Of a stretch of DNA of 64,000 bases, positions 784 to 28,296 are shown in pieces; the stretch's first letter is position 1, and the number at the start of each line of letters is the position of its first letter. Below the pieces are notes generated by a model. It saw only the letters and a program-made list of their open reading frames with translations, was not told where the DNA came from and searched no databases. Location of the stretch: the IMG/VR virus record IMGVR_UViG_2721755721_000001, one strand, 5' to 3'. Position numbers and translations under genes: made by a program. The stretch is from a virus (Duplodnaviria; Heunggongvirae; Uroviricota; Caudoviricetes).

Positions 784-3456
784 TTAACCCGGCACCTCGC
801 TGTTGAAGACATAGAGCCTGCGGGGATTCATCTCTGGCGGGCGAATGGTTGTCTGGAGTTTGCCATCAGTGGAGGGCAGCAGGTATCCACGATCTGCGCA
901 CAGACGCGCCACCTTGCGCGGGTCAAATCCCCTGCAGATTTCTTTCCAGCCGGACGGCATGACATAGAACGTAGTGACAGCTTCCGTGCCCTGCGCGGTA
1001 CTGCCTTTCTCCACCCTTCGCCAGCCCACCATATTGCCGGGGCGGTTGCGCTCGTCATACCAGTCTGCAAAGCGGCTGTACTGATTCGCGGTAAAGAAAC
1101 TGCGAACCTGCTCCAGTGCGGCGATATCTTCCTGATTGGCGGTGTGCCCGCGATCTTTCAGCCATGCGTTCAGGCAGACGCGGGTTGCCCGCAGTGCTTC
1201 ACCCTCAGGCCAGCCGGTGATACCCAGACGGGTTGCCAGTTCACCTGCCATCGCCACCAGTGCAAAGCGGTTCACAGCCCGGCCCACCTGATTGCCTGCA
1301 TCTTTCGGAGTCAGGGCGGCAGCATATTCCTTCATCAGCGATTTTGCCTGTGCCGTTAGTCCGTTAAGATCAGCGGTCAGTGCTTTCAGCCACTCCCGGA
1401 ACGGCGAACCGTAGTAGCAGGACGTGGCCCATTCAAGATGCTCTGCCAGAGCCTTGCCGCTGTCGAAGCCGTGCAGCTCCTCAAAAACGCCAAACTTCCC
1501 GGAATCGCTGGGGATCTGGATCATCCTGACTTCCATCCCGGCAAAAGTACGCTCACCGGCCTTTGCCGCATGTTCGGTCAGAGACAATTCGCCAGTTGAA
1601 AAGAACAACAGGCGCCACTGCTTACGGGTACGCAGCTCACCGTCCGTACCGGCACGGCCCTTGCCCTGACCGTTTGCCAGCATGTAGGCGATATTGCCTG
1701 CCTCGCGTCCGTCAACTTCCCGGATCTCATCAAGCATCATGGCGGCATCGTTGCGGCGGCTGGCGCATCCCTCCAGTGCGTTGCCGGTGGCCCGCCATGT
1801 CTGCCAGTAGTCAGGCCCGCCGCAGACGGAGGTTGCTGCTTTCATGGTGGTGGTCTTACCGTCTGTCGATTCCCCTTTGAGGTGGTAGCCGCCGCCGTCC
1901 ATACCAACCAGCCGTAACAGTGGTGCAGCAAAGGCCAGGCTGACAGCAAATGCCACGCGGGAGTTGCCGGTACAGTAGCGGGATACATGCTCCCGCCATT
2001 CCTCTGTTGTGCCCGACACGCGGAAATCACGCCCCTGCACGGAAGTGGTCTGGAGAATGACACCCTCTGCACCTTCACCGCTGACCTCATCCTGCAGGAC
2101 GTAAACCTGACCATGCCAGCCAGTACGACTGACGCAGGTCACGCGGCGTTCCGGTTTACACAGTGAGATATATTCCATCAGGCGTGCGCGTGCCTCACCG
2201 GTGGTGCTGATATAAGACAGCCCGTTAACCAGCAGTACCCGGCGCAGTTCCTCACCACTGCCGCTCAGCATTTCCATCGGCATCGCCCAGCGGCGACACT
2301 CACCCCACGTATCTTCCCATTCCAGCAGTCGTCCGAAGTTACCGCCATCGGCATCGCAGGTGATTGCCGTCACGCGCAGCGGGCTGCATATTTTGACGTT
2401 CTGGATCTCCGTCTCACCGTTGCGCTGTACCTGCTTTTCATACCAGAGATATTCCTGGGTAAGACGGAACCCGTGCGGCAGTTGCGTGCGGCTTTCCCCG
2501 CAGAGTACCAGACCGTTGCGAAAGGCTTCACGGGCACGGGTAATACCGTGCTCCCGATGAAAGTCATTCCAGTCAGCCTTAATCTCTTCTGGTGGCAGCG
2601 TCATCCAGCCGCCAACAGCTTTTGCCGCCCGTTCAGCAAAGGCTCTGCCGGGATTCTCACCCCCGTCCTGAAAATCGTTATCACCGGCGATGATAATTTT
2701 TACCTCAGGCCAGCGTGCCCGCAGCGACTGCGCCACATTGGGCAGGTTGCCCGCAGATATGGCAGCCACTACGCATCCGGCAGTGAGCTGGCTTACCGTC
2801 AGCGCCGTAGCGTAACCTTCGGTAATCACCACCTGTATCGGTGGTTCAGACGGTAACGGGCTGAGCGACACAAACGCGCCTTTCATCGTGCTGCCGGGCA
2901 GTATGCTTTTTTCACCCGTCGGGGCGATAAGCTGTGCACCGGTCACGGCTCCGGTGTTGGTCGTGAGTGGTAACAGCAGGGAACCGGCAGGAAAATCCTT
3001 ACCGCTGATATGCTGTACGCTTCCGGTCAGAGAGGCCGGGTATCCGGCGAACCCTTTTCCTGTCAGATAGGCGCTTTCTCCCGTGTGGCTCTCTTTCATC
3101 AGCGCCGCCACGGTAAGACCCATGTCGCGTTTAGGGGCTTTTTGTCTGGCAGGCTTAACAGGCAGTTCCTGCATATCCGGCACATTAAGCACCTGCGCCA
3201 CCTCCTGCGCAGCCTTTCTGACGTTGTAACCGGTTACGAGCTTAACCAGATCCAGACCGTCACCATTGCCACACTGGCTGCAGATCCACGTCCCGCGCCC
3301 GTCAAGGTCATCAAGGCGAAAACGATCCTTGCCCCCACATTTCGGGCAGGGACCGTGCCTGCCGTTTTCAGGTACATCAATACGCAGCATCTGCAGAATA
3401 ACGGGCCATTTCCCCCGTGCGGCGGCTGAAACCTGCGTAACCGTCTGTATTGTCAT
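784..3456 (-). CDS. P4 alpha-like DNA primase-helicase (890 aa)
   Basis: N-terminal zinc finger CPKCGGKDRFR...CSQCG, TOPRIM-like ITEGYATALTV/IIIAGDND, Walker A GESTDGKTT in C-terminal helicase part. Confidence 0.85.
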   Translation of the reverse strand: MTIQTVTQVSAAARGKWPVILQMLRIDVPENGRHGPCPKCGGKDRFRLDDLDGRGTWICSQCGNGDGLDLVKLVTGYNVRKAAQEVAQVLNVPDMQELPVKPARQKAPKRDMGLTVAALMKESHTGESAYLTGKGFAGYPASLTGSVQHISGKDFPAGSLLLPLTTNTGAVTGAQLIAPTGEKSILPGSTMKGAFVSLSPLPSEPPIQVVITEGYATALTVSQLTAGCVVAAISAGNLPNVAQSLRARWPEVKIIIAGDNDFQDGGENPGRAFAERAAKAVGGWMTLPPEEIKADWNDFHREHGITRAREAFRNGLVLCGESRTQLPHGFRLTQEYLWYEKQVQRNGETEIQNVKICSPLRVTAITCDADGGNFGRLLEWEDTWGECRRWAMPMEMLSGSGEELRRVLLVNGLSYISTTGEARARLMEYISLCKPERRVTCVSRTGWHGQVYVLQDEVSGEGAEGVILQTTSVQGRDFRVSGTTEEWREHVSRYCTGNSRVAFAVSLAFAAPLLRLVGMDGGGYHLKGESTDGKTTTMKAATSVCGGPDYWQTWRATGNALEGCASRRNDAAMMLDEIREVDGREAGNIAYMLANGQGKGRAGTDGELRTRKQWRLLFFSTGELSLTEHAAKAGERTFAGMEVRMIQIPSDSGKFGVFEELHGFDSGKALAEHLEWATSCYYGSPFREWLKALTADLNGLTAQAKSLMKEYAAALTPKDAGNQVGRAVNRFALVAMAGELATRLGITGWPEGEALRATRVCLNAWLKDRGHTANQEDIAALEQVRSFFTANQYSRFADWYDERNRPGNMVGWRRVEKGSTAQGTEAVTTFYVMPSGWKEICRGFDPRKVARLCADRGYLLPSTDGKLQTTIRPPEMNPRRLYVFNSEVPG

Positions 3457-5355: not shown

Positions 5356-6237
5356 CTACCCCTTTTGTTTTAATCCCGCATGATTAACCGCTAATCGTAA
5401 TTTTCTTAAGATTTCTTGTTCATTAGTGATAAATATTGGAGGTAGCTCTCCTAAATGTTTAATTATGGCGTTAGTCCACTTTTCAGGACTTATCTCTTTT
5501 CTTTCACCACGACATTCGCTTGGGTATTTTGCTAATATATATATGGCTGCATTTAATAACCCCTCCCTATTTTTTGCATGATGCTCAGCAGTGTTATTTA
5601 ATCGCTTGGGGATTTTAGGTTCAGATGAAATTCTTTTCGTAAGTAAACTTGGCATAGGAATTCCAGTTTTTACTGATTTCCATATTAACTCTAAATCTCT
5701 TCGCATGATAAGAAGATCTTCAAATGGAATCTTAATTACCTTATTTCCTTCATATGAGGCCGTTGCCATCAAAACATTATCTCGTATTTTTACCGGTTTA
5801 AGCCTGAATTCATAATCTGGATCTATAGCTAATCCATTTTTTATGTCACTTATCATATCATCGGCGTACCAAATACCACAGGCAAATCCTATAATTTGAA
5901 GCCCATTTTCAAAATGTTCAAAGGAATCATCTTTAAGGTCATACCATATTGTTGAAAATTCCATCTCTAGTGATTGATTAGTTAATACGGGATGAATTAA
6001 GTCAATTTCCATTTTCTGATTTTTATTGAGGAAATTAACATTAAATCTAACTGCAAGTCCATCCGCCTTGAATGCGATATTAAAAGCGCCTATTTCGTAT
6101 AGATGTAATAAATCATCAATCTCGCATTCTAATAGTCTTGAAGCGCGTTCAAATGAACAATATTCTAATGGTGGTATTTTTTTGTCAATCCATAGATTTC
6201 CTAAGAATATAGTTTCATTCTCTGTTGAATGCTGCAT
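5356..6237 (-). CDS. hypothetical AT-rich cargo protein (293 aa) between integrase and alpA
   Basis: Long ORF with AGAGG Shine-Dalgarno; markedly AT-rich versus flanks; no motif recognised. Confidence 0.65.
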   Translation of the reverse strand: MQHSTENETIFLGNLWIDKKIPPLEYCSFERASRLLECEIDDLLHLYEIGAFNIAFKADGLAVRFNVNFLNKNQKMEIDLIHPVLTNQSLEMEFSTIWYDLKDDSFEHFENGLQIIGFACGIWYADDMISDIKNGLAIDPDYEFRLKPVKIRDNVLMATASYEGNKVIKIPFEDLLIMRRDLELIWKSVKTGIPMPSLLTKRISSEPKIPKRLNNTAEHHAKNREGLLNAAIYILAKYPSECRGERKEISPEKWTNAIIKHLGELPPIFITNEQEILRKLRLAVNHAGLKQKG

Positions 6238-6267: not shown

Positions 6268-7554
6268 TTAATTGATAATGTTAATACCTGATAAGTCATA
6301 AGGAGCATGGAATTCGTCCTTATTTAGTTCCAGATAATTAGACCACCATTGCATCATTCTGCGGCGTTCCTGCATGTGCTGCGCAAGATGCACATATGCT
6401 GCCCGCACTTCGTTTCTTTCTTGGTGACTCATCTGCCGTTCAACTGCATCGCGTGACCAGAGTCCTGATTCGGTCAGTGCAGAGCAGGCCATCGCCCTGA
6501 ACCCATGCAAGCAAACATCAGTTTGAGTGTCGTAACCCATCGTTCGCAGTGCTTTATTAACTGTGTTTTCGCTCATCGGTTTATATGGGTTGCTGTCACC
6601 GGGAAAAACCAGCAGATATTCACCACTGATTTTCCTTATATCCTCCAGTACCCCGATAGCCTGACTAGATAGCGGGACATAATGAGCAGCCCCCATCTTT
6701 GCACCCCGATCTGAGAATTTAACCCCTGCGATCTCTTCACGTTGTCCTGGTATCGTCCATAGCCCATTTTCAATGTCGATCTCCTCCCATCTGGCATGTC
6801 GTAGTTCGCTGGATCGCACAAAAGTGTGCAGGGAAAAGAGAACTGCTAGGCGAGTCAATGGTCTTCCCGTGTAACTTCTCGTTTTCGCTAACAGTTCAGG
6901 TAAACGTTCGAGAGGTAGTGCGGGGCGATGTCGTACTTTGGGGGCCGTAATTGCACCTTTTAGATCGTGGGCAGGGTTGTAATCGACAATTCCACGTTGC
7001 ACGGCATAACGGAAGATGCTCGTCATAGTGGTTTTTACACGGCTCGTTGTGGCACCAATTCCTTTCTCAGTCATCTCAACCAGCATCGGCATCAAGTCAC
7101 GGGTTTTGAGCGTATCGATAGGCTTTGAACCGATGGCAGGAAAGAGGTGGTTTTCCATTTCTCGGAGAATTTTTTTACGGGTGATCTCTTTCCACTCAGG
7201 ATGCCCCATCGTTCCACTATGCCACTCTCTGGCAACACTCTCGAACGTGGGGGAAATTGGGTCTTCCTTTTTGGGTTTCTTTGCTTCGCGAGGATCACGA
7301 CCATCGGCTAGTAGTTGCCTGGCTTCATCACGCCGTTTCCGCGCTGTTGCAAGTGAGACATCTGGGTAGACCCCTAATGCCAATGTCACTTGTTTTCCAT
7401 CAAAACGATAATTCATACGCCAGTATTTTCCACCAGTCTTTCGTACCAGTAGATACAAACTCCCTCCATCGGTAAGTTTGTAATCATTGGTCTTCGGCTT
7501 GGCGTTTTCTATCTGTTTGGGGGAAAGCACATTAATGGCCATATCTGTACTCAT
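6268..7554 (-). CDS. int: P4-type tyrosine integrase (start uncertain, ORF extends to 7602)
   Basis: N-terminus LSPKQIENAKPKTNDYKLTDGGSLYLLVRKTGGKYWRMNYR typical of P4-family integrases; C-terminal catalytic region with HGFR...Y. Confidence 0.85.
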   Translation of the reverse strand: MSTDMAINVLSPKQIENAKPKTNDYKLTDGGSLYLLVRKTGGKYWRMNYRFDGKQVTLALGVYPDVSLATARKRRDEARQLLADGRDPREAKKPKKEDPISPTFESVAREWHSGTMGHPEWKEITRKKILREMENHLFPAIGSKPIDTLKTRDLMPMLVEMTEKGIGATTSRVKTTMTSIFRYAVQRGIVDYNPAHDLKGAITAPKVRHRPALPLERLPELLAKTRSYTGRPLTRLAVLFSLHTFVRSSELRHARWEEIDIENGLWTIPGQREEIAGVKFSDRGAKMGAAHYVPLSSQAIGVLEDIRKISGEYLLVFPGDSNPYKPMSENTVNKALRTMGYDTQTDVCLHGFRAMACSALTESGLWSRDAVERQMSHQERNEVRAAYVHLAQHMQERRRMMQWWSNYLELNKDEFHAPYDLSGINIIN

Positions 7555-7814
7555 TTTGGTAAATTGATGGTATCTGCATATCGAACTGGGGAATACCATC
7601 ACTTATACCATCACGAGGTTGTAATGTCATGAAATTAACTGAAATGAAAATCAGGCCGATTCGGTGATAACTTACTGTTTTTTTAAGTGGTTATGTAATG
7701 AAGTGAAATGTAGAGAAAGGTCTTTAAAGTGTCCCCTGCAGACATCTACTTGAGGCAGCAGGGGATTGATTGGAATGGTGTTTTTTAGGTGTGAGAAATA
7801 TTTTACCCGCTATT

Positions 7815-8015
7815 TTACCCATTGGCGCGGCTTAAGAGCTTATTTTTGAATTCACAATGGTCACGATATAACCATCTTGCTCGACCGTGGATAACTTTGG
7901 CTTTTGGCAGGTCGCCGGACTTAATCCGGTCGTAGATGAAGGTTTTACCAAAGCCAGTATCGGCCATGATGAATTTCAAATCAACCAGTGAATCAGGTTG
8001 TAGTTCGTGTTGCAT
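7815..8015 (-). CDS. xis: excisionase / AlpA-like HTH DNA-binding protein (66 aa)
   Basis: Small basic HTH protein directly upstream of the integrase, GGAGA Shine-Dalgarno. Confidence 0.6.
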   Translation of the reverse strand: MQHELQPDSLVDLKFIMADTGFGKTFIYDRIKSGDLPKAKVIHGRARWLYRDHCEFKNKLLSRANG

Positions 8016-8146: not shown

Positions 8147-8359
8147 TTAGCTTTTTTCGTTGCCTTCGCGTTCTTTATTAATTTTGACAAAATCGTTTTT
8201 ACCACGCTCTCCAAATGCGTCTTTAGAGTCGTTGTATCCGCAATCGCAGCACACATAATCATCAGACCATCCACGCATTGTTTTTTCTTTTGCAATATTT
8301 CCAGAACCGCATTTTGGACAAGACATATCACTACCTCCAAAGCATGAGAGAGATGACAA
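8147..8359 (-). CDS. zinc-ribbon small protein (70 aa)
   Basis: CPKCGSG...CCDCG paired Cys motifs. Confidence 0.5.
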   Translation of the reverse strand: MSSLSCFGGSDMSCPKCGSGNIAKEKTMRGWSDDYVCCDCGYNDSKDAFGERGKNDFVKINKEREGNEKS

Positions 8360-8422: not shown

Positions 8423-8797
8423 TCAAAGGGGAGGCTCTGGTAGCGGCATCCAGTGTGACGGTTTCCACGACGCACCAGGAATTATCCACCCATCATTAGC
8501 GTCAGGATGCCCCGGGATGTAAGTCGCCCATTTCATTCGCCAGTCACCTTTCCTGTCAAACTCCCTGGCAACAAGAACGGCTGTTTTGGTATCCGGCATT
8601 CGCTCACTACAGCTTATCCAACCATCAGGAGTTACCGGAGAGTTGCCGGGTTCTTTAATGTGCAAGCGAGGCTCACCATCTTTTGGCTCAGGCCACTGGC
8701 GCTCCATGTTGATCTTCAATTTATCTTCCATAGCAGCGGTAATTTCAGCATCGCTGATGCCAGCACGGCGCTGTGCATCCCACAACAGGAAATGCAT
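8423..8797 (-). CDS. lambdoid early-left hypothetical protein (DUF551-like)
   Basis: ORF in the early-left operon; separated in-frame from the upstream ORF by a single TAG. Confidence 0.5.
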   Translation of the reverse strand: MHFLLWDAQRRAGISDAEITAAMEDKLKINMERQWPEPKDGEPRLHIKEPGNSPVTPDGWISCSERMPDTKTAVLVAREFDRKGDWRMKWATYIPGHPDANDGWIIPGASWKPSHWMPLPEPPL

Positions 8798-8806
8798 ATC
8801 AGCCCA

Positions 8807-9052
8807 CTAGCTGAGATCGTCTGGTTCGGCTGCGGCTTCCAGAGCCTCTTTTGAGAGGTGTTTCAGTGGACCAATGGGGCCAACGCAGCCAAATGTGGAG
8901 TCAGACCATTTGGCATGCTCGTGGCGAATCAGTTCGCGTTCCAGTGATGCCAGTGCAATTCGTGCCAGTTCCATTTGTTCGCCACGAGTAAGCCCGTTTT
9001 CAAGCGGATTTTTAATGAACAATTCAATACGTTCTTTGGTAATAGTGGTCAT
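8807..9052 (-). CDS. hypothetical protein (81 aa)
   Basis: ORF in the early-left operon. Confidence 0.4.
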   Translation of the reverse strand: MTTITKERIELFIKNPLENGLTRGEQMELARIALASLERELIRHEHAKWSDSTFGCVGPIGPLKHLSKEALEAAAEPDDLS

Positions 9053-9062
9053 TTGTTAGTCC

Positions 9063-9818
9063 TTAAACTGCTAGTTGCAATTGCATTTCAAAGCGGTCGC
9101 GTTGTTCACAATACGCAAGAGAACCAGGGCTATTGTGTGCCTCAATCCGTTCTACCATTAATGCTGCGCGTGTCTCTTTACTTGCAGGTGCATAAGCCCC
9201 AGACCAGGCTTTATCAATACCGATGTTTCGAGCGACGTTCGTACTATCTGCGCTGGCTAAGGGTAATTTTGTGAATATCAGCGGATTTAACATGCGCAAT
9301 CCATGTAGTTTCGTAACCGGCTGACCATGCCCATCAACAATGTGACGAATCAGGTCTTTCATTCTGGCTACCGCAAGAGTTGGGCGCTTTACGTCATAGT
9401 CGCCACAACTACCGATAGCCACTCGCGGAAACTCATTGCACAAATGAATAAATCGCGCGTCACTTTCATTCATGTGCCACACTGGAACGCCAGCTAGTTT
9501 TCCGTGAGGCCACTCATTCAGAAGCGCATCATTTTCCTCCTCTCCGCCATCAATAATATCCGGGATAATGGCAAAATCGAATCCTGGGTGATTCTTCCAG
9601 CGAGCAACAAACTCGTAGTAATCGCTCCAGTCGATTTTGTTTTTGCCAGCTGCTTTCCAGGCGGTGAATGCACCGTTGTCCAGCGCGAACGACTGACAGT
9701 ATTCAGCCGCGAGATTGATCTGGCCTGAATGCGCAAAACTGATAAACGCATGTCGCCCTTTCCATGCTCTCATTGCGCACGTATCAGGAGTAATAGGCCC
9801 ACCGTGGTAGTGAATCAT
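9063..9818 (-). CDS. hypothetical protein (251 aa); weak, unverified resemblance to TGT/DpdA-like transglycosylases
   Basis: Start at MIHYHGG with AAGGAG Shine-Dalgarno, coupled to the upstream stop; DNGAF motif. Confidence 0.55.
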   Translation of the reverse strand: MIHYHGGPITPDTCAMRAWKGRHAFISFAHSGQINLAAEYCQSFALDNGAFTAWKAAGKNKIDWSDYYEFVARWKNHPGFDFAIIPDIIDGGEEENDALLNEWPHGKLAGVPVWHMNESDARFIHLCNEFPRVAIGSCGDYDVKRPTLAVARMKDLIRHIVDGHGQPVTKLHGLRMLNPLIFTKLPLASADSTNVARNIGIDKAWSGAYAPASKETRAALMVERIEAHNSPGSLAYCEQRDRFEMQLQLAV

Positions 9819-9819
9819 C

Positions 9820-10227
9820 TCACTCTCCTTTGATGCGAATGCCAGTAGCGCGGATTGCATCGATGACTTCAGAAACTTTGTATGCCATTACCGTTTGGTA
9901 ATCATCGTGAAAATCTGTTCGATGAAGCATGCTGCTACGTTCCGGGAGCAGTATTTCCCGCGCTTCCAGTTCTGCAATGCGCTTTTTTGCTGCTTCCAGT
10001 TCATCCAGTAATTCCAGCACGGTAGCCGGATTAGCCTTGGCAACAAAATCCCGGACTGGCTTACAATCAATCTCCGCAATGGGTTGATACGATGTGTAGC
10101 CATGCTGTCTTGTATAACTACCGTGACGAATAACGAAAAAATCACCATTTATTTTTTTAGCCTGCCACTTATCTTCACCGGCTTTCTCTGCCGCTTCACG
10201 CAGTGCCTGAGAGTTAATTTCGCTCAC
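9820..10227 (-). CDS. Ead/Ea22-like protein
   Basis: Position and coiled-coil C-terminus typical of Ea22-like early proteins. Confidence 0.5.
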   Translation of the reverse strand: MSEINSQALREAAEKAGEDKWQAKKINGDFFVIRHGSYTRQHGYTSYQPIAEIDCKPVRDFVAKANPATVLELLDELEAAKKRIAELEAREILLPERSSMLHRTDFHDDYQTVMAYKVSEVIDAIRATGIRIKGE

Positions 10228-11027: not shown

Positions 11028-11188
11028 ACAGCCCCTCGTTTATTATTTATCTCCTCAGCCAGCCGCTGGGCTTTCAGTGGATTTTGGATAACAGAAAGGT
11101 CGGGAAATACCCAGCCTCGCTTTGTAACGGAGTAGACGAAAGTGATCGCACCTACCCGGATATTATCGTGAGGATGCTTCATCGCCAT
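11000..11188 (-). CDS. lambda orf60a-like protein
   Basis: [29 protein letters not shown]..., immediately downstream of exo. Confidence 0.5.
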
Positions 11189-11859
11189 TGCTCCCCAAAT
11201 ACAAAACCAATTTCAGCCAGTGCCTCGTCCATTTTTTCGATGAACTCCGGCACCATCTCGTCAAAACCCGCCATGTACTTTTCATCCCGCTCAACCACGA
11301 CATAATGCAGTCCTTCACGCTTCATACGCGGGTCATAGTTGGCAAAGTACCAGGCATCTTTTCGCGTCACCCACATGCTGTACTGCACCTGGGCCATGTA
11401 AGCTGACTTTATGGCCTCGAAACCACCGAGCCGGAACTTCATGAAATCCCGGGAGGTAAACGGGCATTTCAGTTCAAGGCCGTTGCCGTCACTGCATAAA
11501 CCATCTGGAGAGCAGGCGGTACGCATACTTTCGTCGCGATAGATGATCGGTGATTCAGTAACATTCACGCCGGAAGTGAACTCAAACAGGGCTCTGGCGT
11601 CGTTCTCGTACTGTTTTCCCCAGGCCAGCGCTTTAGCGTTAACTTCCGGAGCCACACCGGTGCAAACCTCAGCAAGCAGGGTGTGGAAGTAGGACATTTT
11701 CATGTCAGGCCACTTTTTTCCGGAGCGGGGTTTTGCTATTACGTTATGAACTTCTGAAGCTGTGATGACGCCGAGCCGTAATTTGTGCCACGCATCATCC
11801 CCCTGTTCGACAGCTCTCACGTCGATCCCGGTACGCTGCAGGATAATGTCCGGTGTCAT
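11179..11859 (-). CDS. exo: lambda exonuclease (Red alpha)
   Basis: 226 aa, [40 protein letters not shown]... near-identical to lambda Exo. Confidence 0.95.
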
Positions 11860-12641
11860 GCTGCCACCTTCTGCTCAGTGGCTTTCTGTTTCAGGAATCC
11901 AAGAGCTTTCACTGCTTCGGCCTGTGTCAGTTCTGACGATGCGCGAATGTCGCGGCGAAATATCTGGGAACAGAGCGGCAATAAGTCGTCATCCCATGTT
12001 TTATCCAGGGCGATTAGCAGAGTGTTAATCTCCTGCATGGTTTCATCGTTAACCGGAGTGATGTCGCGTTCCGGCTGGCGTTCTGCAGTGTATGCAGTAT
12101 TTTCGACAATGCGCTCGGCTTCATCCTTGTCATAGATACCAGCAAATCCGAAGGCCAGACGGGCACACTGAATCATGGCTTTATGCCGTAACATCCGTTT
12201 AGGATGCGACTGCCACGGCCCCGTGATTTCTCTGCCTTCGCGAGTTTTGAATGGTTCGCGGCGGCATTCATCCATCCATTCGGTAACGCAGATCGGATGA
12301 TTACGGTCCTTGCGGTAAATCCGGCATGTACAGGATTCATTGTCCTGCTCAAAGTCCATGCCATCAAACTGCTGGTTTTCATTGATGATGCGGGACCAGC
12401 CATCAACGCCCACCACCGGAACGATGCCGTTCTGCTTATCAGGGAAGGCGTAAATTTCTTTCGTCCACGGATTAAGGCCGTACTGGTTGGCGACGATCAA
12501 CAATGCGATGAACTGCGCATCGCTGGCATCGCCTTTAAATGCCGTCTGGCGAAGAGTGGCGATCAGTTCCTGTGGGTCGACAGAATCCATGCCGACACGT
12601 TCAGCCAGCTTCCCTGCCAGCGTTGCGAGTGCTGTACTCAT
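11856..12641 (-). CDS. bet: lambda Bet (Red beta) single-strand annealing protein
   Basis: 261 aa, near-identical to lambda Bet. Confidence 0.95.
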
Positions 12642-13916: not shown

Positions 13917-14540
13917 CTATGCGGCCTCGGAAGGAAGTCCAATCATCTTATTCAAATCTTCTACCCGTAAAGCAGGAAGTGCTGTACTTGCTTTATCTGC
14001 TTCTTTTGGTAGCAATTCTTTGCTTTCAGGCCAAACTTCAATAAGTCGCTTAACTGTTGTTACTGAGTTCAAAGCAGCCCATACATTTGATTCGATATCC
14101 TTTTTCCTGGCTTCAAGTTTTTGTTGCAATGCGCAGATTTCATCAAACCTTTTTGTTATTTCGTGTTCTGCGTTAAACATGCATTTATCTCTGTTAGGAG
14201 TAGGGAGCAATATATCTTCGCCGTTACCGTCTTTTCCATATGAATACCAGCCAACCCTTCTGCCAGATACAGTCAGATAAATTGAAGTAGAACGAACATC
14301 GTATGAGTAAAATGAACATCCCATCTTTTCAAGTTCTTCACTTATAGCCATTAATCTGGATGATAACTGATCCACTTCTTCAGTTTTCTTTTTACCGCCA
14401 AACGCAACAACTCTGGCGTCAAGTGCAAGCCGGTTCTTTAACTTTGTTACTTCTTCAAGTTCGGTGAAAACCCCGGACTTAATTAAAGCGTTACGAGCGA
14501 TATCCTCTTTCATTCTCGTAGTTAAGCGGATTGATGACAT
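13917..14540 (-). CDS. hypothetical protein (about 207 aa) in the ral/sieB slot between ea10 and N
   Basis: Start at MSSIRLTTRM with GAGAGG Shine-Dalgarno; no motif recognised. Confidence 0.55.
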   Translation of the reverse strand: MSSIRLTTRMKEDIARNALIKSGVFTELEEVTKLKNRLALDARVVAFGGKKKTEEVDQLSSRLMAISEELEKMGCSFYSYDVRSTSIYLTVSGRRVGWYSYGKDGNGEDILLPTPNRDKCMFNAEHEITKRFDEICALQQKLEARKKDIESNVWAALNSVTTVKRLIEVWPESKELLPKEADKASTALPALRVEDLNKMIGLPSEAA

Positions 14541-14601
14541 ATTAATTCCTCTCAAATAAGTGGTTTGCTGCCTGATTTCATTTTCTGGTGACCAACACAA
14601 G

Positions 14602-23627: not shown

Positions 23628-24289
23628 ATATCTACGAAAGAATTGATGGCAGCAAATACCGAAATATTTGGGTAGTTGGCGATCTGCACGGATGCTACAC
23701 GAACCTGATGAAAAAACTGGAGACGATAGGATTCGACACCAAAAAAGACCTGCTTATCTCGGTTGGCGATTTGGTTGATCGTGGTGCAGAGAACGTTGAA
23801 TGCCTGGAATTAATCACATTCCCCTGGTTCAGAGCTGTACGTGGAAACCATGAGCACATGATGATTGATGGCTTATCAGAGCGTGGAAACGTCAATCACT
23901 GGCTGCTTAATGGCGGTGGCTGGTTCTTTAATCTCGATTACGACAAAGAAATTCTGGCTAAAGCTCTTGCCCATAAAGCAGATGAACTTCCGTTAATCAT
24001 CGAACTGGTGAGTAAAGGAAAAAAATATGTCATCTGCCACGCCGATTATCCTTGTGATGAATACGAGTTTGGAAAGCCAGTTGATCATCAGCAGGTAATC
24101 TGGAACCGCGAACGAATCAGCAACTCACAAGACGGGATCGTGAAAGAAATCAAAGGCGCGGACACGTTCATCTTTGGTCATACGCCAGCAGTGAAACCAC
24201 TCAAGTTTGCCAACCAGATGTATATCGATACCGGCGCAGTGTTCTGCGGAAACCTCACATTGATTCAGGTACAGGGAGAAGGCGCATGA
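23624..24289 (+). CDS. lambda-type Ser/Thr protein phosphatase (NinI)
   Basis: GDLHG, GDLVDRG, GNHE metallophosphatase motifs. Confidence 0.9.
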
Positions 24290-24909
24290 GACTCGAAAGC
24301 GTAGCTAAATTTCATTCGCCAAAAAGCCCGATGATGAGCGACTCACCACGGGCTACGGCTTCTGACTCTCTTTCCGGTACTGATGTGATGGCTGCTATGG
24401 GAATGGCGCAATCACAAGCCGGATTCGGAATGGCTGCATTCTGTGGTAAGCACGAACTCAGCCAGAACGACAAACAAAAGGCTATCAACTATCTGATGCA
24501 ATTTGCACACAAGGTATCGGGGAAATACCGTGGTGTGGCAAAGCTCGAAGGAAATACTAAGGCAAAGGTACTGCAAGTGCTCGCAATATTTGCTTATGCG
24601 GATTATTGCCGTAGTGCCGCGACGCCGGGCGCAAGATGCAGAGATTGCCACGGTACAGGTCGGGCAGTTGATATAGCCAAAACAGAGCTGTGGGGGAGAG
24701 TTGTTGAGAAAGAATGCGGAAGATGCAAAGGTGTCGGCTATTCAAGAATGCCAGCAAGCGCCGCATATCGCGCTGTAACGATGCTAATCCCAAACCTTAC
24801 TCAACCCACCTGGTCACGCACTGTTAAGCCGCTGTATGACGCTCTGGTTGTGCAATGCCACAAGGAAGAGTCAATCGCAGACAACATTTTGAATGCGATC
24901 ACACGTTAG
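24286..24909 (+). CDS. Q: late antiterminator Q (lambda Q type)
   Basis: 207 aa, zinc-finger CRDCHGTG...CGRCKG; matches lambda Q. Confidence 0.9.
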
Positions 24910-24939
24910 CGCCATGATTGCCACGGATGGCAACATATT

Positions 24940-24995
24940 AACGGCATAATATTGACTTTTTGAATAACTTTGGGGAAACTTGACACCAATAATGG
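24940..24995 (+). promoter_or_regulatory. putative late promoter pR'/qut region
   Basis: attgactttttgaataactttggggaaacttgaca resembles the lambda pR' region just downstream of Q. Confidence 0.35.
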
Positions 24996-25145
24996 GCGTT
25001 TTTTACATGTCATTGATGAGCTCAATAACCTGCCGCCGAGTAGTTTTTATGCTCTGAATTGTATTTGTGTAGTAAACATGCTGACTGCAATGTAATAGAG
25101 TTTTTTTAGCCTGTAACCTCTTGACGGCATTGAATTGCTTTTGTT

Positions 25146-25904
25146 ATGAGTTGTAAGCCAATGTTATCATCTTGTATTGGGGTGGTTATGAAGGATGGTG
25201 CGCTGCTCAGGAGTTCTTCACTTTTTATTGCCTACATGGGATGCCTTGGATGGGGGAGTGCTTATTTCTATGGATGGGGTACTTCTTTTTACTACGGCTT
25301 CCCATGGTGGATTGTAGGTGCAGGTGTTGATGATGTTGCCAGAAGTTTATTTTTTGCAGTTATCGTCATTGCTATATTTCTTATCGGTTGGGGTATTGGT
25401 GTTGTATTCTTTTTCGCAGTGAAAAGAAAACATTCTATGCAAGAGCTAAATGTATTTCGCCTTTATTTTGCTGTGGAATTATTGTTTGTGCCGGCAATTA
25501 TTGAGTTTTCTATATTGAGACAGAAGATTCAGGTACCTCTTTTGCTACTGTCAGCAGCGATTGCGCTGGCGGTTACAATTTCGATAAGATCTTATGGGCG
25601 ATTTTTATCGGTATCATGCTTCTATGATAAGCCATTTATAAAAAAACATTTTTTTGAGATTGTGATGATTGCTTTTGTGGCATATTTCTGGCTTTTTTCA
25701 TTTCTGACAGGATATTACAAACCACAGTTTAAGAAAGAATATGAAATGATTAATTATAATGATGATTGGTATTATGTTCTTGCTCGTTATGATAATTGTC
25801 TGGTTTTGTCTACTTCTTTCAATGCAGGTAGTAAAAGGTTTGTCATTTATCAATCAGCACAAGATAAGAATCTTCAGGTTGATATTGTAAGGACCAGAAT
25901 TTAA
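25146..25904 (+). CDS. hypothetical multi-pass membrane protein (252 aa; start may be the internal MKDGALL)
   Basis: AT-rich ORF with 4-5 hydrophobic segments; located between Q and the lysis genes. Confidence 0.55.
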   Translation: MSCKPMLSSCIGVVMKDGALLRSSSLFIAYMGCLGWGSAYFYGWGTSFYYGFPWWIVGAGVDDVARSLFFAVIVIAIFLIGWGIGVVFFFAVKRKHSMQELNVFRLYFAVELLFVPAIIEFSILRQKIQVPLLLLSAAIALAVTISIRSYGRFLSVSCFYDKPFIKKHFFEIVMIAFVAYFWLFSFLTGYYKPQFKKEYEMINYNDDWYYVLARYDNCLVLSTSFNAGSKRFVIYQSAQDKNLQVDIVRTRI

Positions 25905-26445
25905 TTGGCTGCATAAATAATATTTTAAGTTGCAAGTTGGCTATTCGTAGGAATAGAACCTCAGGCATGCTGAATGCGTTTTCTGAACATTGTTTTATAA
26001 ACTGTGTCTGCTTGCTGTTGTGATCCTGCTTTTAGTGATGGTGATGATGGATTTCACCAGCAGGATAATGTTGGTACTGACTGATGGCGCTCTGGTCTGC
26101 GGCATTGTGGTATTGCTGTGGCCGATGATGAAAGAACAGAATGAATAATTCTTGACTTTTTTGTTTACTGTTTATTAAAAAACCAACCGCATGGTGAATC
26201 CTCCTTGGAGGGGCTAAATGATCGAGTTTTAAGGGCACGTAGCGAGTTCTGTTTGATCATTGCAGAACTTAGCGGGAGGCGCCATGCGTACATCACTAGT
26301 GTTATTCCTTTTATCATTTTCCTTGTGAGTTCTGGCTGCGCATTGCGCAGCTTTTTTTTATGACCTGCCACTGGCAGATGGTCATCCTGTGATTTGATTC
26401 CGGTTCCGGCTTTTTAACTCTGTTCCTGTACACGGGAGAAATTCG

Positions 26446-28296
26446 ATGTCGATTAAACATTACGATGTTGTCAGGGCGGCGTCGCCGTCAGACCTTGCGG
26501 AAAAGCTGACACACAAACTGAAAGAGGGCTGGCAGCCATACGGCGGACCGGTTGCCATTACGCCGTACACACTGATGCAGGCGGTGGCTATTGAAGGAGA
26601 GCCACAGGTCGGCCCTTCATCTGAGCCGGATTGGTACTACGTCATCGTACTGGCCGGGCAGTCCAATGCCATGGCTTACGGTGAAGGGCTTCCGCTGCCG
26701 GATTCATACGATGCTCCGGATCCGCGCATTAAACAGCTGGCGCGCCGCAGTACAGTGACGCCGGGCGGGGCTGCCTGCAGATATAACGATATTATTCCGG
26801 CTGACCACTGTCTGCATGATGTGCAGGATATGAGTACGCTGAATCATCCGAGGGCTGACCTGAGCAAAGGGCAGTACGGCTGTGTCGGCCAGGGTTTACA
26901 TATTGCCAAAAAACTGCTCCCGTATATCCCGAATAACGCGGGGATCCTGCTGGTACCATGCTGTCGTGGTGGTTCGGCATTTACCCAGGGCGCGGAGGGG
27001 ACATTCAGCGAGTCCACGGGGGCCAGTCAGGATTCGGCACGCTGGGGGGTGGGCAAGCCGTTATATCAGGATCTGATTTCCCGCACAAAAGCGGCATTGC
27101 AGAAAAATCCCAAAAACGTTCTGCTGGCCGTCTGCTGGATGCAGGGTGAGTTTGACATGAGCGCCGCCACCCACGCACAGCAACCTGCGCTGTTTACAGC
27201 CATGCTGACACAGTTTCGTGCTGACCTCTCCGTGTTTAACGCGCAGTGCCATGGTGGCAGCGCTGCAGATGTGCCGTGGATTTGTGGTGACACGACGTAT
27301 TACTGGAAAAATACATACGCTACCCAATACGACACCGTGTACGGCGGGTATAAAAACAGGGAGAGTGAGGGCGTTTATTTTGTGCCCTTCATGACAGACG
27401 GTAACGGCGTCAATACCGCCACTAACGCGCCGGCAGAAGATCCGGATATTCCGGCATCAGGATATTACGGTGCGGCATCGAGAACGAATGGAAACCAGGT
27501 ATCATCAAACCGCCCGACACATTTCAGTTCATGGGCGCGCAGGAGCATTATTCCGGATCGTCTGGCAACCGCTATTCTGAACGCAGCCGGGCGCACCTCA
27601 GCCTTCATCAGTGGTAAGGCACCGGAAATCAAACCCTCGCCCGGCGGCAACACACCATCGGGTCCGTCTGCAGATACGTCCGTTCGCACAATCTCCCTGC
27701 TGCCGACAGCCGGAGAGGCTGCTGCGCAGGGCTGGACCATTAAGGACGGCGGAATTCAGTTGTCGGGTGGTGTATTTAAGATCGCCAAGCAGAGCAATAA
27801 AACCTGGTCCCTGACGCATCCGGTGGATGACGCAATTACCCTGCTGACACAGGGCGGCAGACTGACCTGTAAGTTCCGCCTGTCAGGCGCACTGACCAAC
27901 AATCAGTTCGGGCTGGGGATTTATCTGTATACGGATGCTCCCGTTCCTGATGGTGTGGCGATGACGGGTACCGGTAATCCGTTCCTGATGTCGTACTTCA
28001 CTCAGACCACTGACGGCAGAGTGAATCTGATGCATCACAGGAAAGCCGGAAACACGAAGCTGGGGGAGTTCGGCGATTACGGTAACGACTGGCAGACGCT
28101 GGAGCTGGTGTTCACCGCCGGCAGTGCCACGGTTACTCCGAAACTGAATGGAGTGGCTGGCCCGGCATTCCAGGTTATAAAAGACAGTCTGACACTGGGA
28201 CTGAATGCGCTGACGCTGACGGATGTTACAAAAAATGCAGCGTATGGCGTTGAGATAGAAAGTCTGGTGCTGGAGATAAATGCACCGGCAGCATAA
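26446..28296 (+). CDS. nanS: NanS-p-like prophage sialate O-acetylesterase (DUF1737 + SGNH/SASA domain)
   Basis: N-terminal MSIKHYDVVRAASPSDLAEKLTHKLKEGWQPYGGPV, then VIVLAGQSNAMAYGEG esterase motif; classic position downstream of Q. Confidence 0.8.
   Translation: MSIKHYDVVRAASPSDLAEKLTHKLKEGWQPYGGPVAITPYTLMQAVAIEGEPQVGPSSEPDWYYVIVLAGQSNAMAYGEGLPLPDSYDAPDPRIKQLARRSTVTPGGAACRYNDIIPADHCLHDVQDMSTLNHPRADLSKGQYGCVGQGLHIAKKLLPYIPNNAGILLVPCCRGGSAFTQGAEGTFSESTGASQDSARWGVGKPLYQDLISRTKAALQKNPKNVLLAVCWMQGEFDMSAATHAQQPALFTAMLTQFRADLSVFNAQCHGGSAADVPWICGDTTYYWKNTYATQYDTVYGGYKNRESEGVYFVPFMTDGNGVNTATNAPAEDPDIPASGYYGAASRTNGNQVSSNRPTHFSSWARRSIIPDRLATAILNAAGRTSAFISGKAPEIKPSPGGNTPSGPSADTSVRTISLLPTAGEAAAQGWTIKDGGIQLSGGVFKIAKQSNKTWSLTHPVDDAITLLTQGGRLTCKFRLSGALTNNQFGLGIYLYTDAPVPDGVAMTGTGNPFLMSYFTQTTDGRVNLMHHRKAGNTKLGEFGDYGNDWQTLELVFTAGSATVTPKLNGVAGPAFQVIKDSLTLGLNALTLTDVTKNAAYGVEIESLVLEINAPAA

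Follow-up and report, generated by a model that had tools for sequence, protein, structure and literature searches.

A probable DpdA1-related DNA-guanine transglycosylase encoded without preQ0 pathway genes in a lambda-like Escherichia coli prophage

Introduction

DpdA proteins are treated in the literature as paralogs of the tRNA-guanine transglycosylase (TGT). In the virulent Queuovirinae (phages CAjan, 9g and Bas24), DpdA is needed for 2'-deoxy-preQ0 (dPreQ0) or 2'-deoxyarchaeosine (dG+) in the phage DNA, and deletion of the dpdA gene of Escherichia phage CAjan led to the loss of dPreQ0 from its DNA (PMC6884629). Hutinet et al. also defined a group 3, which comprises 76 phages with DpdA but without any protein for G+ or preQ0 biosynthesis, and noted that the DpdAs of such pathway-less phages cluster apart and may have diverged in function (PMC6884629). 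Here, we analyzed a stretch of viral DNA of 64,000 nucleotides (IMG/VR record IMGVR_UViG_2721755721_000001; referred to as the window), which is a lambda-like E. coli prophage related to Shiga toxin (Stx) phages. On its minus strand we found a gene for a protein of 251 amino acids, called the dpdA-like gene below, which probably belongs to this pathway-less group. A sequence-only reading of the window had put forward a TGT/DpdA-type transglycosylase as a low-confidence guess.

When expressed alone in E. coli, DpdA2 enzymes draw on the preQ0 or preQ1 of the host, and DpdA2 of phage nt-1 alone introduced 926-1607 dPreQ0 per million nucleotides into plasmids of wild-type E. coli but none in a queD mutant (PMC10516641). 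Because this enzyme works alone in E. coli and depends on queD, a host-supplied base is feasible for a pathway-less DpdA. For bacterial DpdA (S. Montevideo, PDB 7UI4), Gedara et al. showed Asp95, with Phe99 four residues further on, to be the general acid/base and Asp256 to be the nucleophile, and described Asp130 and His181 as base-recognizing residues and a CxCx2Cx22H zinc site (PMC10164549).

Sequence relationship to validated DpdA

When the dpdA-like protein was compared with PHROGs, which are built by remote-homology clustering, it matched PHROG 887 (phrog_887, "queuine tRNA-ribosyltransferase") at an E-value of 2.6e-101, and the DpdA of phage CAjan (YP_009196829) fell into the same family (E 8e-96). 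Alignment of a 61-sequence family profile with CAjan DpdA by hhalign gave a probability of 98.9% and an E-value of 1.1e-17 over 173 columns, and the motifs LDNGAF, KLHGLR and SADST were paired with LDSGAF, KLHAFG and SCDSS of the CAjan enzyme. Repetition with a 138-sequence profile yielded similar values (98.6%, E 9e-16). In tblastn searches, CAjan DpdA also gave direct matches to 29 of a set of 80 distant relatives of the dpdA-like protein, and a scan for its own relatives returned seven close loci, not enough to build a DpdA1 profile. Taken together, the two proteins share a homologous core with the motifs LD[SN]GAF, KLH and SxDS. However, they are only about 21% identical, CAjan DpdA is 55 residues longer with extensions at both termini, and about 30% of G is modified in CAjan.

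The same 61-sequence profile gave a probability of 0.8% against a single E. coli TGT sequence (1.2% with the 138-sequence profile) and of 0.2% against DpdA2 of phage KVP40 (NP_899370), and these data indicate that the match is specific for the DpdA1 type. Searches of Pfam, NCBIfam, PADLOC and PDB sequences with the dpdA-like protein returned nothing, Pfam and PDB searches with the 61-member alignment returned nothing meaningful, and none of the 61 relatives had a Pfam match. Since the validated CAjan DpdA likewise has no Pfam match, the Pfam result carries no weight against a DpdA. The protein could not be placed in the TGT family (PF01702), for which neither a Pfam nor a PDB sequence match was found and hhalign gave the low probabilities quoted above, nor with the bacterial DpdA of the Dpd restriction-modification system, for which there was no PADLOC or NCBIfam match and no DpdB or dpd cluster gene among the neighbors. 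Thus, the earlier guess of a DpdA-type enzyme was supported, and a link to cellular TGT itself was not detectable in these searches. The resemblance in size, which had also been brought forward, is loose, with 251 residues compared with 375 in TGT and 306 in CAjan DpdA.

Closer relatives have already been listed as DpdA. The dpdA-like protein is 92.4% identical to YP_007011024 of Salmonella phage SPN3UB, about 67% identical to the proteins of phage SfI and Vibrio phage Athena1, and 35% identical to that of Salmonella phage 7-11; all four phages stand in the DpdA column without pathway proteins in Supplementary Data 1 of Hutinet et al. 2019 (PMC6884629). An even closer protein (98.4% identity) is encoded by an unannotated Stx1a phage. 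On the basis of these sequence similarities, the protein can be assigned to group 3 of Hutinet et al., the gamma-proteobacterial DpdA cluster without pathway genes. With other group 3 members (SPN3UB, Enterobacteria phages SfI and HK106, Vibrio phage Athena1) it shares the clade, the length, the lack of a pathway and the temperate type of the phage, and at the protein level there is next to no difference. Proteins nearly identical to it have been on record as DpdA since 2019 and bear this annotation in RefSeq phage entries, so that the identity had already been predicted. Among the complete E. coli genomes of RefSeq, 204 of 5,426 contain the gene, which carries the label "hypothetical protein" from the Prokaryotic Genome Annotation Pipeline (WP_000582233.1), so that the E. 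coli annotation can be improved.

Pathway genes in close and distant relatives

We used the CAjan FolE, QueD, QueC, QueE and YhhQ proteins and QueD of Caulobacter phage DMCA as tblastn queries. Neither the 64-kb window nor the surroundings of the gene (up to 10 kb) in 80 close relatives (loci with at least 67% identity) yielded a FolE, QueD, QueC, QueE or YhhQ homolog, and the clade of the dpdA-like protein is genuinely without the preQ0 pathway. CAjan differs in this respect, since the dpdA gene in its record lies inside a FolE-QueD-YhhQ-QueC-QueE cluster.

A different picture was obtained for the 80 distant relatives, which are 31-46% identical to the dpdA-like protein and the loci of which were scanned with a 7-sequence alignment. 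Here, a QueD, QueE, QueC or YhhQ-type gene was found within 1 kb on the same strand in 34 of the 80 loci, and in phage DMCA the QueD gene abuts the dpdA-like copy. This linkage, as evidence of an independent kind, connects the family with the handling of 7-deazaguanine precursors.

Many of the distant relatives are paired with only QueD and QueE, or with only a YhhQ-type transporter, and not with a full preQ0 pathway. Examples among the viral contig loci (L086-L165) are L100 (9693-11292), L104 (8832-10296) and L127 (9443-11327). Such partial pairing implies partial dependence on host enzymes or on salvage.

Predicted structure and candidate catalytic residues

An AlphaFold2 model of the dpdA-like protein, calculated from a 61-sequence alignment, had a predicted local distance difference test score of 92.2 and a predicted template modeling score of 0.89. 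It contained eight beta-alpha units, and the predicted fold is an eight-stranded (beta/alpha)8 triosephosphate isomerase (TIM) barrel. When this model was compared by Foldseek with predicted viral structures (BFVD), the best matches (E 1e-19 to 1e-4, template modeling (TM) score up to 0.79) were uncharacterized phage proteins and proteins named queuine tRNA-ribosyltransferase, the latter with E-values of 3e-9 to 1e-4 and TM scores up to 0.70. Their sources were phages of Arthrobacter, Microbacterium and Mycobacterium as well as Dinoroseobacter phage R5C; of these, Mycobacterium phage Bella96 and phage R5C appear among the DpdAs listed in the literature. Proteins of Vibrio phage nt-1 and Cellulophaga phage phiST were matched more weakly. 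Assignment as a TrpA-like enzyme was rejected, since the TIM-barrel matches in the PDB were about a million-fold weaker than those to viral DpdA. The sequence-only reading had named lack of a TGT/DpdA profile hit together with an unrelated predicted fold as the outcome that would speak against it; we found a DpdA-level profile match, and the fold is the TIM barrel common to TGT and DpdA, with phage DpdA-like proteins as best matches.

Among 138 diverse relatives, D47, H172, D191 and S192 were invariant and D87 and H115 were 99% conserved. In the model, all of these residues are located at the C-terminal ends of barrel strands (Table 1). The D-N-G-A-F motif pointed out earlier turned out to be invariant among close relatives, and the candidate catalytic and base-recognition residues were identical in family members with and without neighboring pathway genes. 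The roles suggested for them follow, by analogy, Asp95, Asp130, His181 and Asp256 of bacterial DpdA, and mapping to this enzyme and to TGT was by pattern and topology, with no computed alignment. Both the dpdA-like protein and bacterial DpdA appear as TIM barrels with an Asp after beta3 followed by a Phe four residues on (D47/F51) and an Asp after beta8 (D191), and the order D-x3-F, Asp after the next strand (D87), His (H172) and last-strand Asp is common to both. Unlike the bacterial enzyme (436 residues in the PDB chain compared with 251), the dpdA-like protein has no zinc site, no Ins8 and no DpdB ATPase or dpd cluster; there is no room for Ins8 because the protein ends 60 residues after D191.

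A similar motif order was seen in E. coli TGT, where TDSGGF (D89), FDEC (D143) and DMFDC (D264) compare with LDNGAF, IIPD and SADST. However, the dpdA-like protein lacks the zinc site (CDCYTC at 302 in E. coli TGT), the beta-sheet lid at the N-terminus and the tRNA-binding insertions of TGT, and DNA would be its expected substrate. For the DpdA2 enzymes (Vibrio phages nt-1, VH7D and KVP40) the same chemistry is proposed, but no profile similarity was detectable. These enzymes comprise about 460 residues and are reported to lack the conserved histidine, whereas H172 is invariant in the dpdA-like family; this difference and the hhalign result for KVP40 led us to reject DpdA2 membership.

Table 1. 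Positions of the dpdA-like gene, its signals, candidate residues and other features in the 64,000-nucleotide window
Feature	Position	Strand	Evidence or observation
dpdA-like coding sequence, 251 aa + stop (ATG 9818-9816, TAA 9065-9063)	9063..9818	-	open reading frame list and translation; PHROG 887; hhalign to CAjan DpdA; SPN3UB identity
Shine-Dalgarno AAGGAG, six nucleotides before ATG of dpdA-like gene	9825..9830	-	direct sequence reading
TGA stop of upstream Ead/Ea22-like gene, one nucleotide before dpdA-like ATG (TGAGATG), translational coupling	9820..9822	-	
DNGAF, residues 47-51, C-terminal end of beta3; D47 candidate general acid/base, F51 candidate base-stacking residue	9666..9680	-	aligned to CAjan LDSGAF; resembles E. 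coli TGT TDSGGF (D89)
D87 (IIPD), just after beta4; candidate base-recognition aspartate	9558..9560	-	99% conserved; aligned by MAFFT with CAjan Asp
H115 (PVWH), end of beta5, conserved	9474..9476	-	99% conserved; invariant with CAjan DpdA
H172 (KLHGLR), in beta7; candidate base-recognition histidine	9303..9305	-	invariant; aligned to CAjan KLHAFG
D191-S192 (SADST), end of beta8; D191 candidate covalent nucleophile	9243..9248	-	both invariant in 138 relatives; aligned to CAjan SCDSS; position like beta8-end Asp256 of bacterial DpdA
Ead/Ea22-like gene, upstream neighbor	9820..10227	-	PF13935
int	6268..7602	-	
TorI-like xis	7815..8015	-	
exo/bet	11179..12641	-	
PF04447 (dATP/dGTP pyrophosphohydrolase) + DUF551 gene, directly downstream	8423..9052	-	split into 81-aa and 124-aa open reading frames
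In-frame TAG in PF04447/DUF551 gene	8807..8809	-	GAG in E. coli JB2
70-aa zinc-ribbon protein, two genes downstream	8147..8359	-	weak matches
227-aa Nmad5 protein, leftward early side	13917..14600	-	Pfam Nmad5 E 1e-71; phrog_1965
Q-like antiterminator	24286..24909	+	phrog_127
252-aa protein	25146..25904		phrog_1521
890-aa primase-helicase, left of prophage integrase	784..3456	-	zinc-ribbon primase + Toprim + DUF927
293-aa protein	5356..6237	-	no family match
Second tyrosine integrase, right window edge	62843..64000	-	

Proposed function and alternative explanations

Given the homology to a validated DpdA, the fold, the conserved residues of catalytic type, the linkage of relatives to pathway genes and the lack of such genes in the window, the gene is likely to encode a DpdA1-related DNA-guanine transglycosylase from the group of DpdAs that occur without pathway genes in temperate phages of enterobacteria and vibrios, an enzyme that inserts a host-made base into phage DNA. 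The protein would be expressed from the N-antiterminated leftward early operon after infection or induction, during lytic growth. The small TIM-barrel enzyme may then flip selected guanines out of duplex phage DNA. In the intermediate, Asp191 would be bound covalently to the deoxyribose, Asp47 would serve as acid/base, and D47 may aid the attack by N9 of the free 7-deazaguanine base. The expected product is dPreQ0 in DNA, or alternatively dPreQ1 or a derivative. As the phage encodes neither FolE, QueD, QueE and QueC nor a transporter, the base would have to come from the queuosine pathway of the host. Presumably only a small and probably motif-restricted subset of guanines is exchanged in replicating phage DNA, and such sparse modification may confer partial protection by blunting some restriction systems.

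Several observations weigh against this interpretation. Foldseek comparison with the PDB returned only generic TIM barrels such as tryptophan synthase alpha and dehydroquinase (E about 1e-3, TM 0.4-0.5), with neither TGT nor DpdA among the top 50, and no link to cellular TGT, bacterial DpdA or type-2 DpdA was detectable in the searches run here. There is no zinc-binding cysteine cluster, the five cysteines being located at residues 14, 41, 127, 138 and 237; CAjan DpdA likewise has no such cluster. For D87, MAFFT and hhalign disagree about the register with CAjan DpdA by a three-residue shift. The virulent 90-kb podovirus 7-11, whose DpdA belongs to the same PHROG family and which likewise has no pathway genes, is the only tested enterobacterial phage with DpdA alone, and its DNA contained just 50 2'-deoxy-7-amido-7-deazaguanosines (dADG) per million nucleotides (PMC6884629). 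Mycobacteriophage Orion, also with DpdA only, had no modification (PMC6884629), which is explained by the lack of preQ0 in its host. In the literature, we found no paper assaying any lambdoid DpdA.

Some of these data would also fit a true DpdA homolog that has kept the base-exchange chemistry and changed its substrate, acting on tRNA or other RNA or on host chromosomal DNA, exchanging a different base in or out, or working as a plain glycosylase. The unmodified DNA of Orion and the mere traces in 7-11 point in this direction, as do the separate clustering and possible divergence of pathway-less DpdAs noted by Hutinet et al. (PMC6884629), and insertions and a zinc module, by which the binding of nucleic acids is shaped in TGT and in bacterial DpdA, are missing from the clade. 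Nevertheless, we regard such a change as unlikely, since members of the same HMM-level (hidden Markov model) family are directly coupled to QueD, QueE, QueC or YhhQ genes, the candidate residues are the same with or without these neighbors, and the Orion result is accounted for by its preQ0-less host. A related and still less probable scenario is that lambdoid pathway-less DpdA has shifted in function, either to another host-derived base, to an epigenetic mark at a few sites for regulation or packaging, or to host DNA or RNA during induction. Such a shift is conceivable because the lambdoid enzyme lives in temperate phages without a pathway of their own, and it would amount to an unrecognized layer of base exchange in lambda-like and Stx-type phages.

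It is improbable that we are dealing with a neutral or decaying accessory gene of a mosaic early region, without effect on phage DNA in E. coli. The region tolerates decay, since the neighboring PF04447/DUF551 gene has an in-frame amber stop, the gene is found in a small fraction of the complete E. coli genomes, and its location varies among lambdoid phages (in SPN3UB it follows the replication genes, whereas here it lies in the leftward early region). On the other hand, the reading frame is intact and has a strong ribosome-binding site, and 188 of the 204 copies in E. coli share 99% identity or more. Moreover, although the family falls into 1,501 clusters at 50% identity, all candidate catalytic residues are kept, an argument that activity is under selection. 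Finally, an unrelated TIM-barrel enzyme with DpdA as an artefact of annotation would agree with the lack of sequence matches in Pfam, NCBIfam, PADLOC and the PDB, with the top PDB structures being tryptophan synthase alpha and dehydroquinase instead of TGT and with the hhalign value for E. coli TGT, but it is hardly credible in view of the motif-for-motif hhalign match (E 1e-17) to the genetically validated CAjan DpdA, which itself has no Pfam match, the million-fold weaker PDB matches and the linkage of relatives to queuosine-precursor genes.

If the DNA-guanine transglycosylase assignment holds and the enzyme is active, some E. coli and Salmonella prophages of the lambda-like type, among them relatives of Shiga toxin phages, would package DNA with a 7-deazaguanine made from queuosine precursors of the host. 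Their sensitivity to restriction enzymes would be changed, and they could be exposed to defenses that recognize 7-deazaguanines, such as GrwAB and Dag1. The remaining interest thus lies in the biochemistry of the DpdAs of pathway-less temperate coliphages and in the stale E. coli label. For the role of a pathway-less DpdA, a lambdoid prophage that is accessible to genetics would be a convenient system, with K-12-type E. coli and its que mutants as hosts.

Gene organization and neighboring genes

The dpdA-like open reading frame is a real gene: a word-indexed search returned more than 7,700 homologs at E<=1e-3, and an exhaustive search gave 1,501 clusters at 50% identity. An alternative frame of 265 residues starts from an ATG at 9860 and overlaps with the upstream gene. 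However, MIHYHGG or a near variant forms the N-terminus in 21 of 21 aligned homologs, and thus the start at 9818 is the real one. The strong Shine-Dalgarno sequence and the coupling to the stop codon upstream, both claimed before, were confirmed by the sequence and the latter involves the Ead/Ea22-like gene (Table 1). The label "early-left" also proved right, since int and xis on one side and exo/bet on the other flank the gene on the same strand. A simple scan of the minus strand between the dpdA-like gene and about 14.2 kb detected no promoter-like site. A TraR/DksA gene and the PF04447/DUF551 gene are further neighbors.

The break of the PF04447/DUF551 gene is a nonsense mutation and not a frameshift, and E. 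coli JB2 has an intact 262-residue protein. We rejected this gene as an obligate partner because a homolog lies directly downstream in only about 20 of 78 close relatives and because of the amber stop here. The zinc-ribbon protein encoded next to it had Pfam matches below the cut-off to the Lar restriction-alleviation family and to other zinc-ribbon families. The Nmad5 protein ("nucleotide modification associated domain 5") was likewise dismissed as a partner, since it co-occurs with the dpdA-like gene in one of 80 related loci. Recent work has connected Nmad5 with sensing by the Tmn defense system (PMC11846954).

The toxin genes of Stx phages lie roughly in the region downstream of Q. In the window, the Q-like antiterminator is followed by the 252-residue protein and then by a 616-residue protein with DUF1737, SASA esterase and DUF6645 domains; no toxin-sized open reading frame was seen in 24286-28296 (plus strand). 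We take the 616-residue protein to be similar to the NanS-p esterase of Stx phages.

To the left of the prophage integrase, the window encodes the 890-residue primase-helicase, which presumably resembles the alpha protein of P4, and the 293-residue protein. Together with the second tyrosine integrase at the right edge, they suggest that further integrative elements flank the lambdoid prophage.

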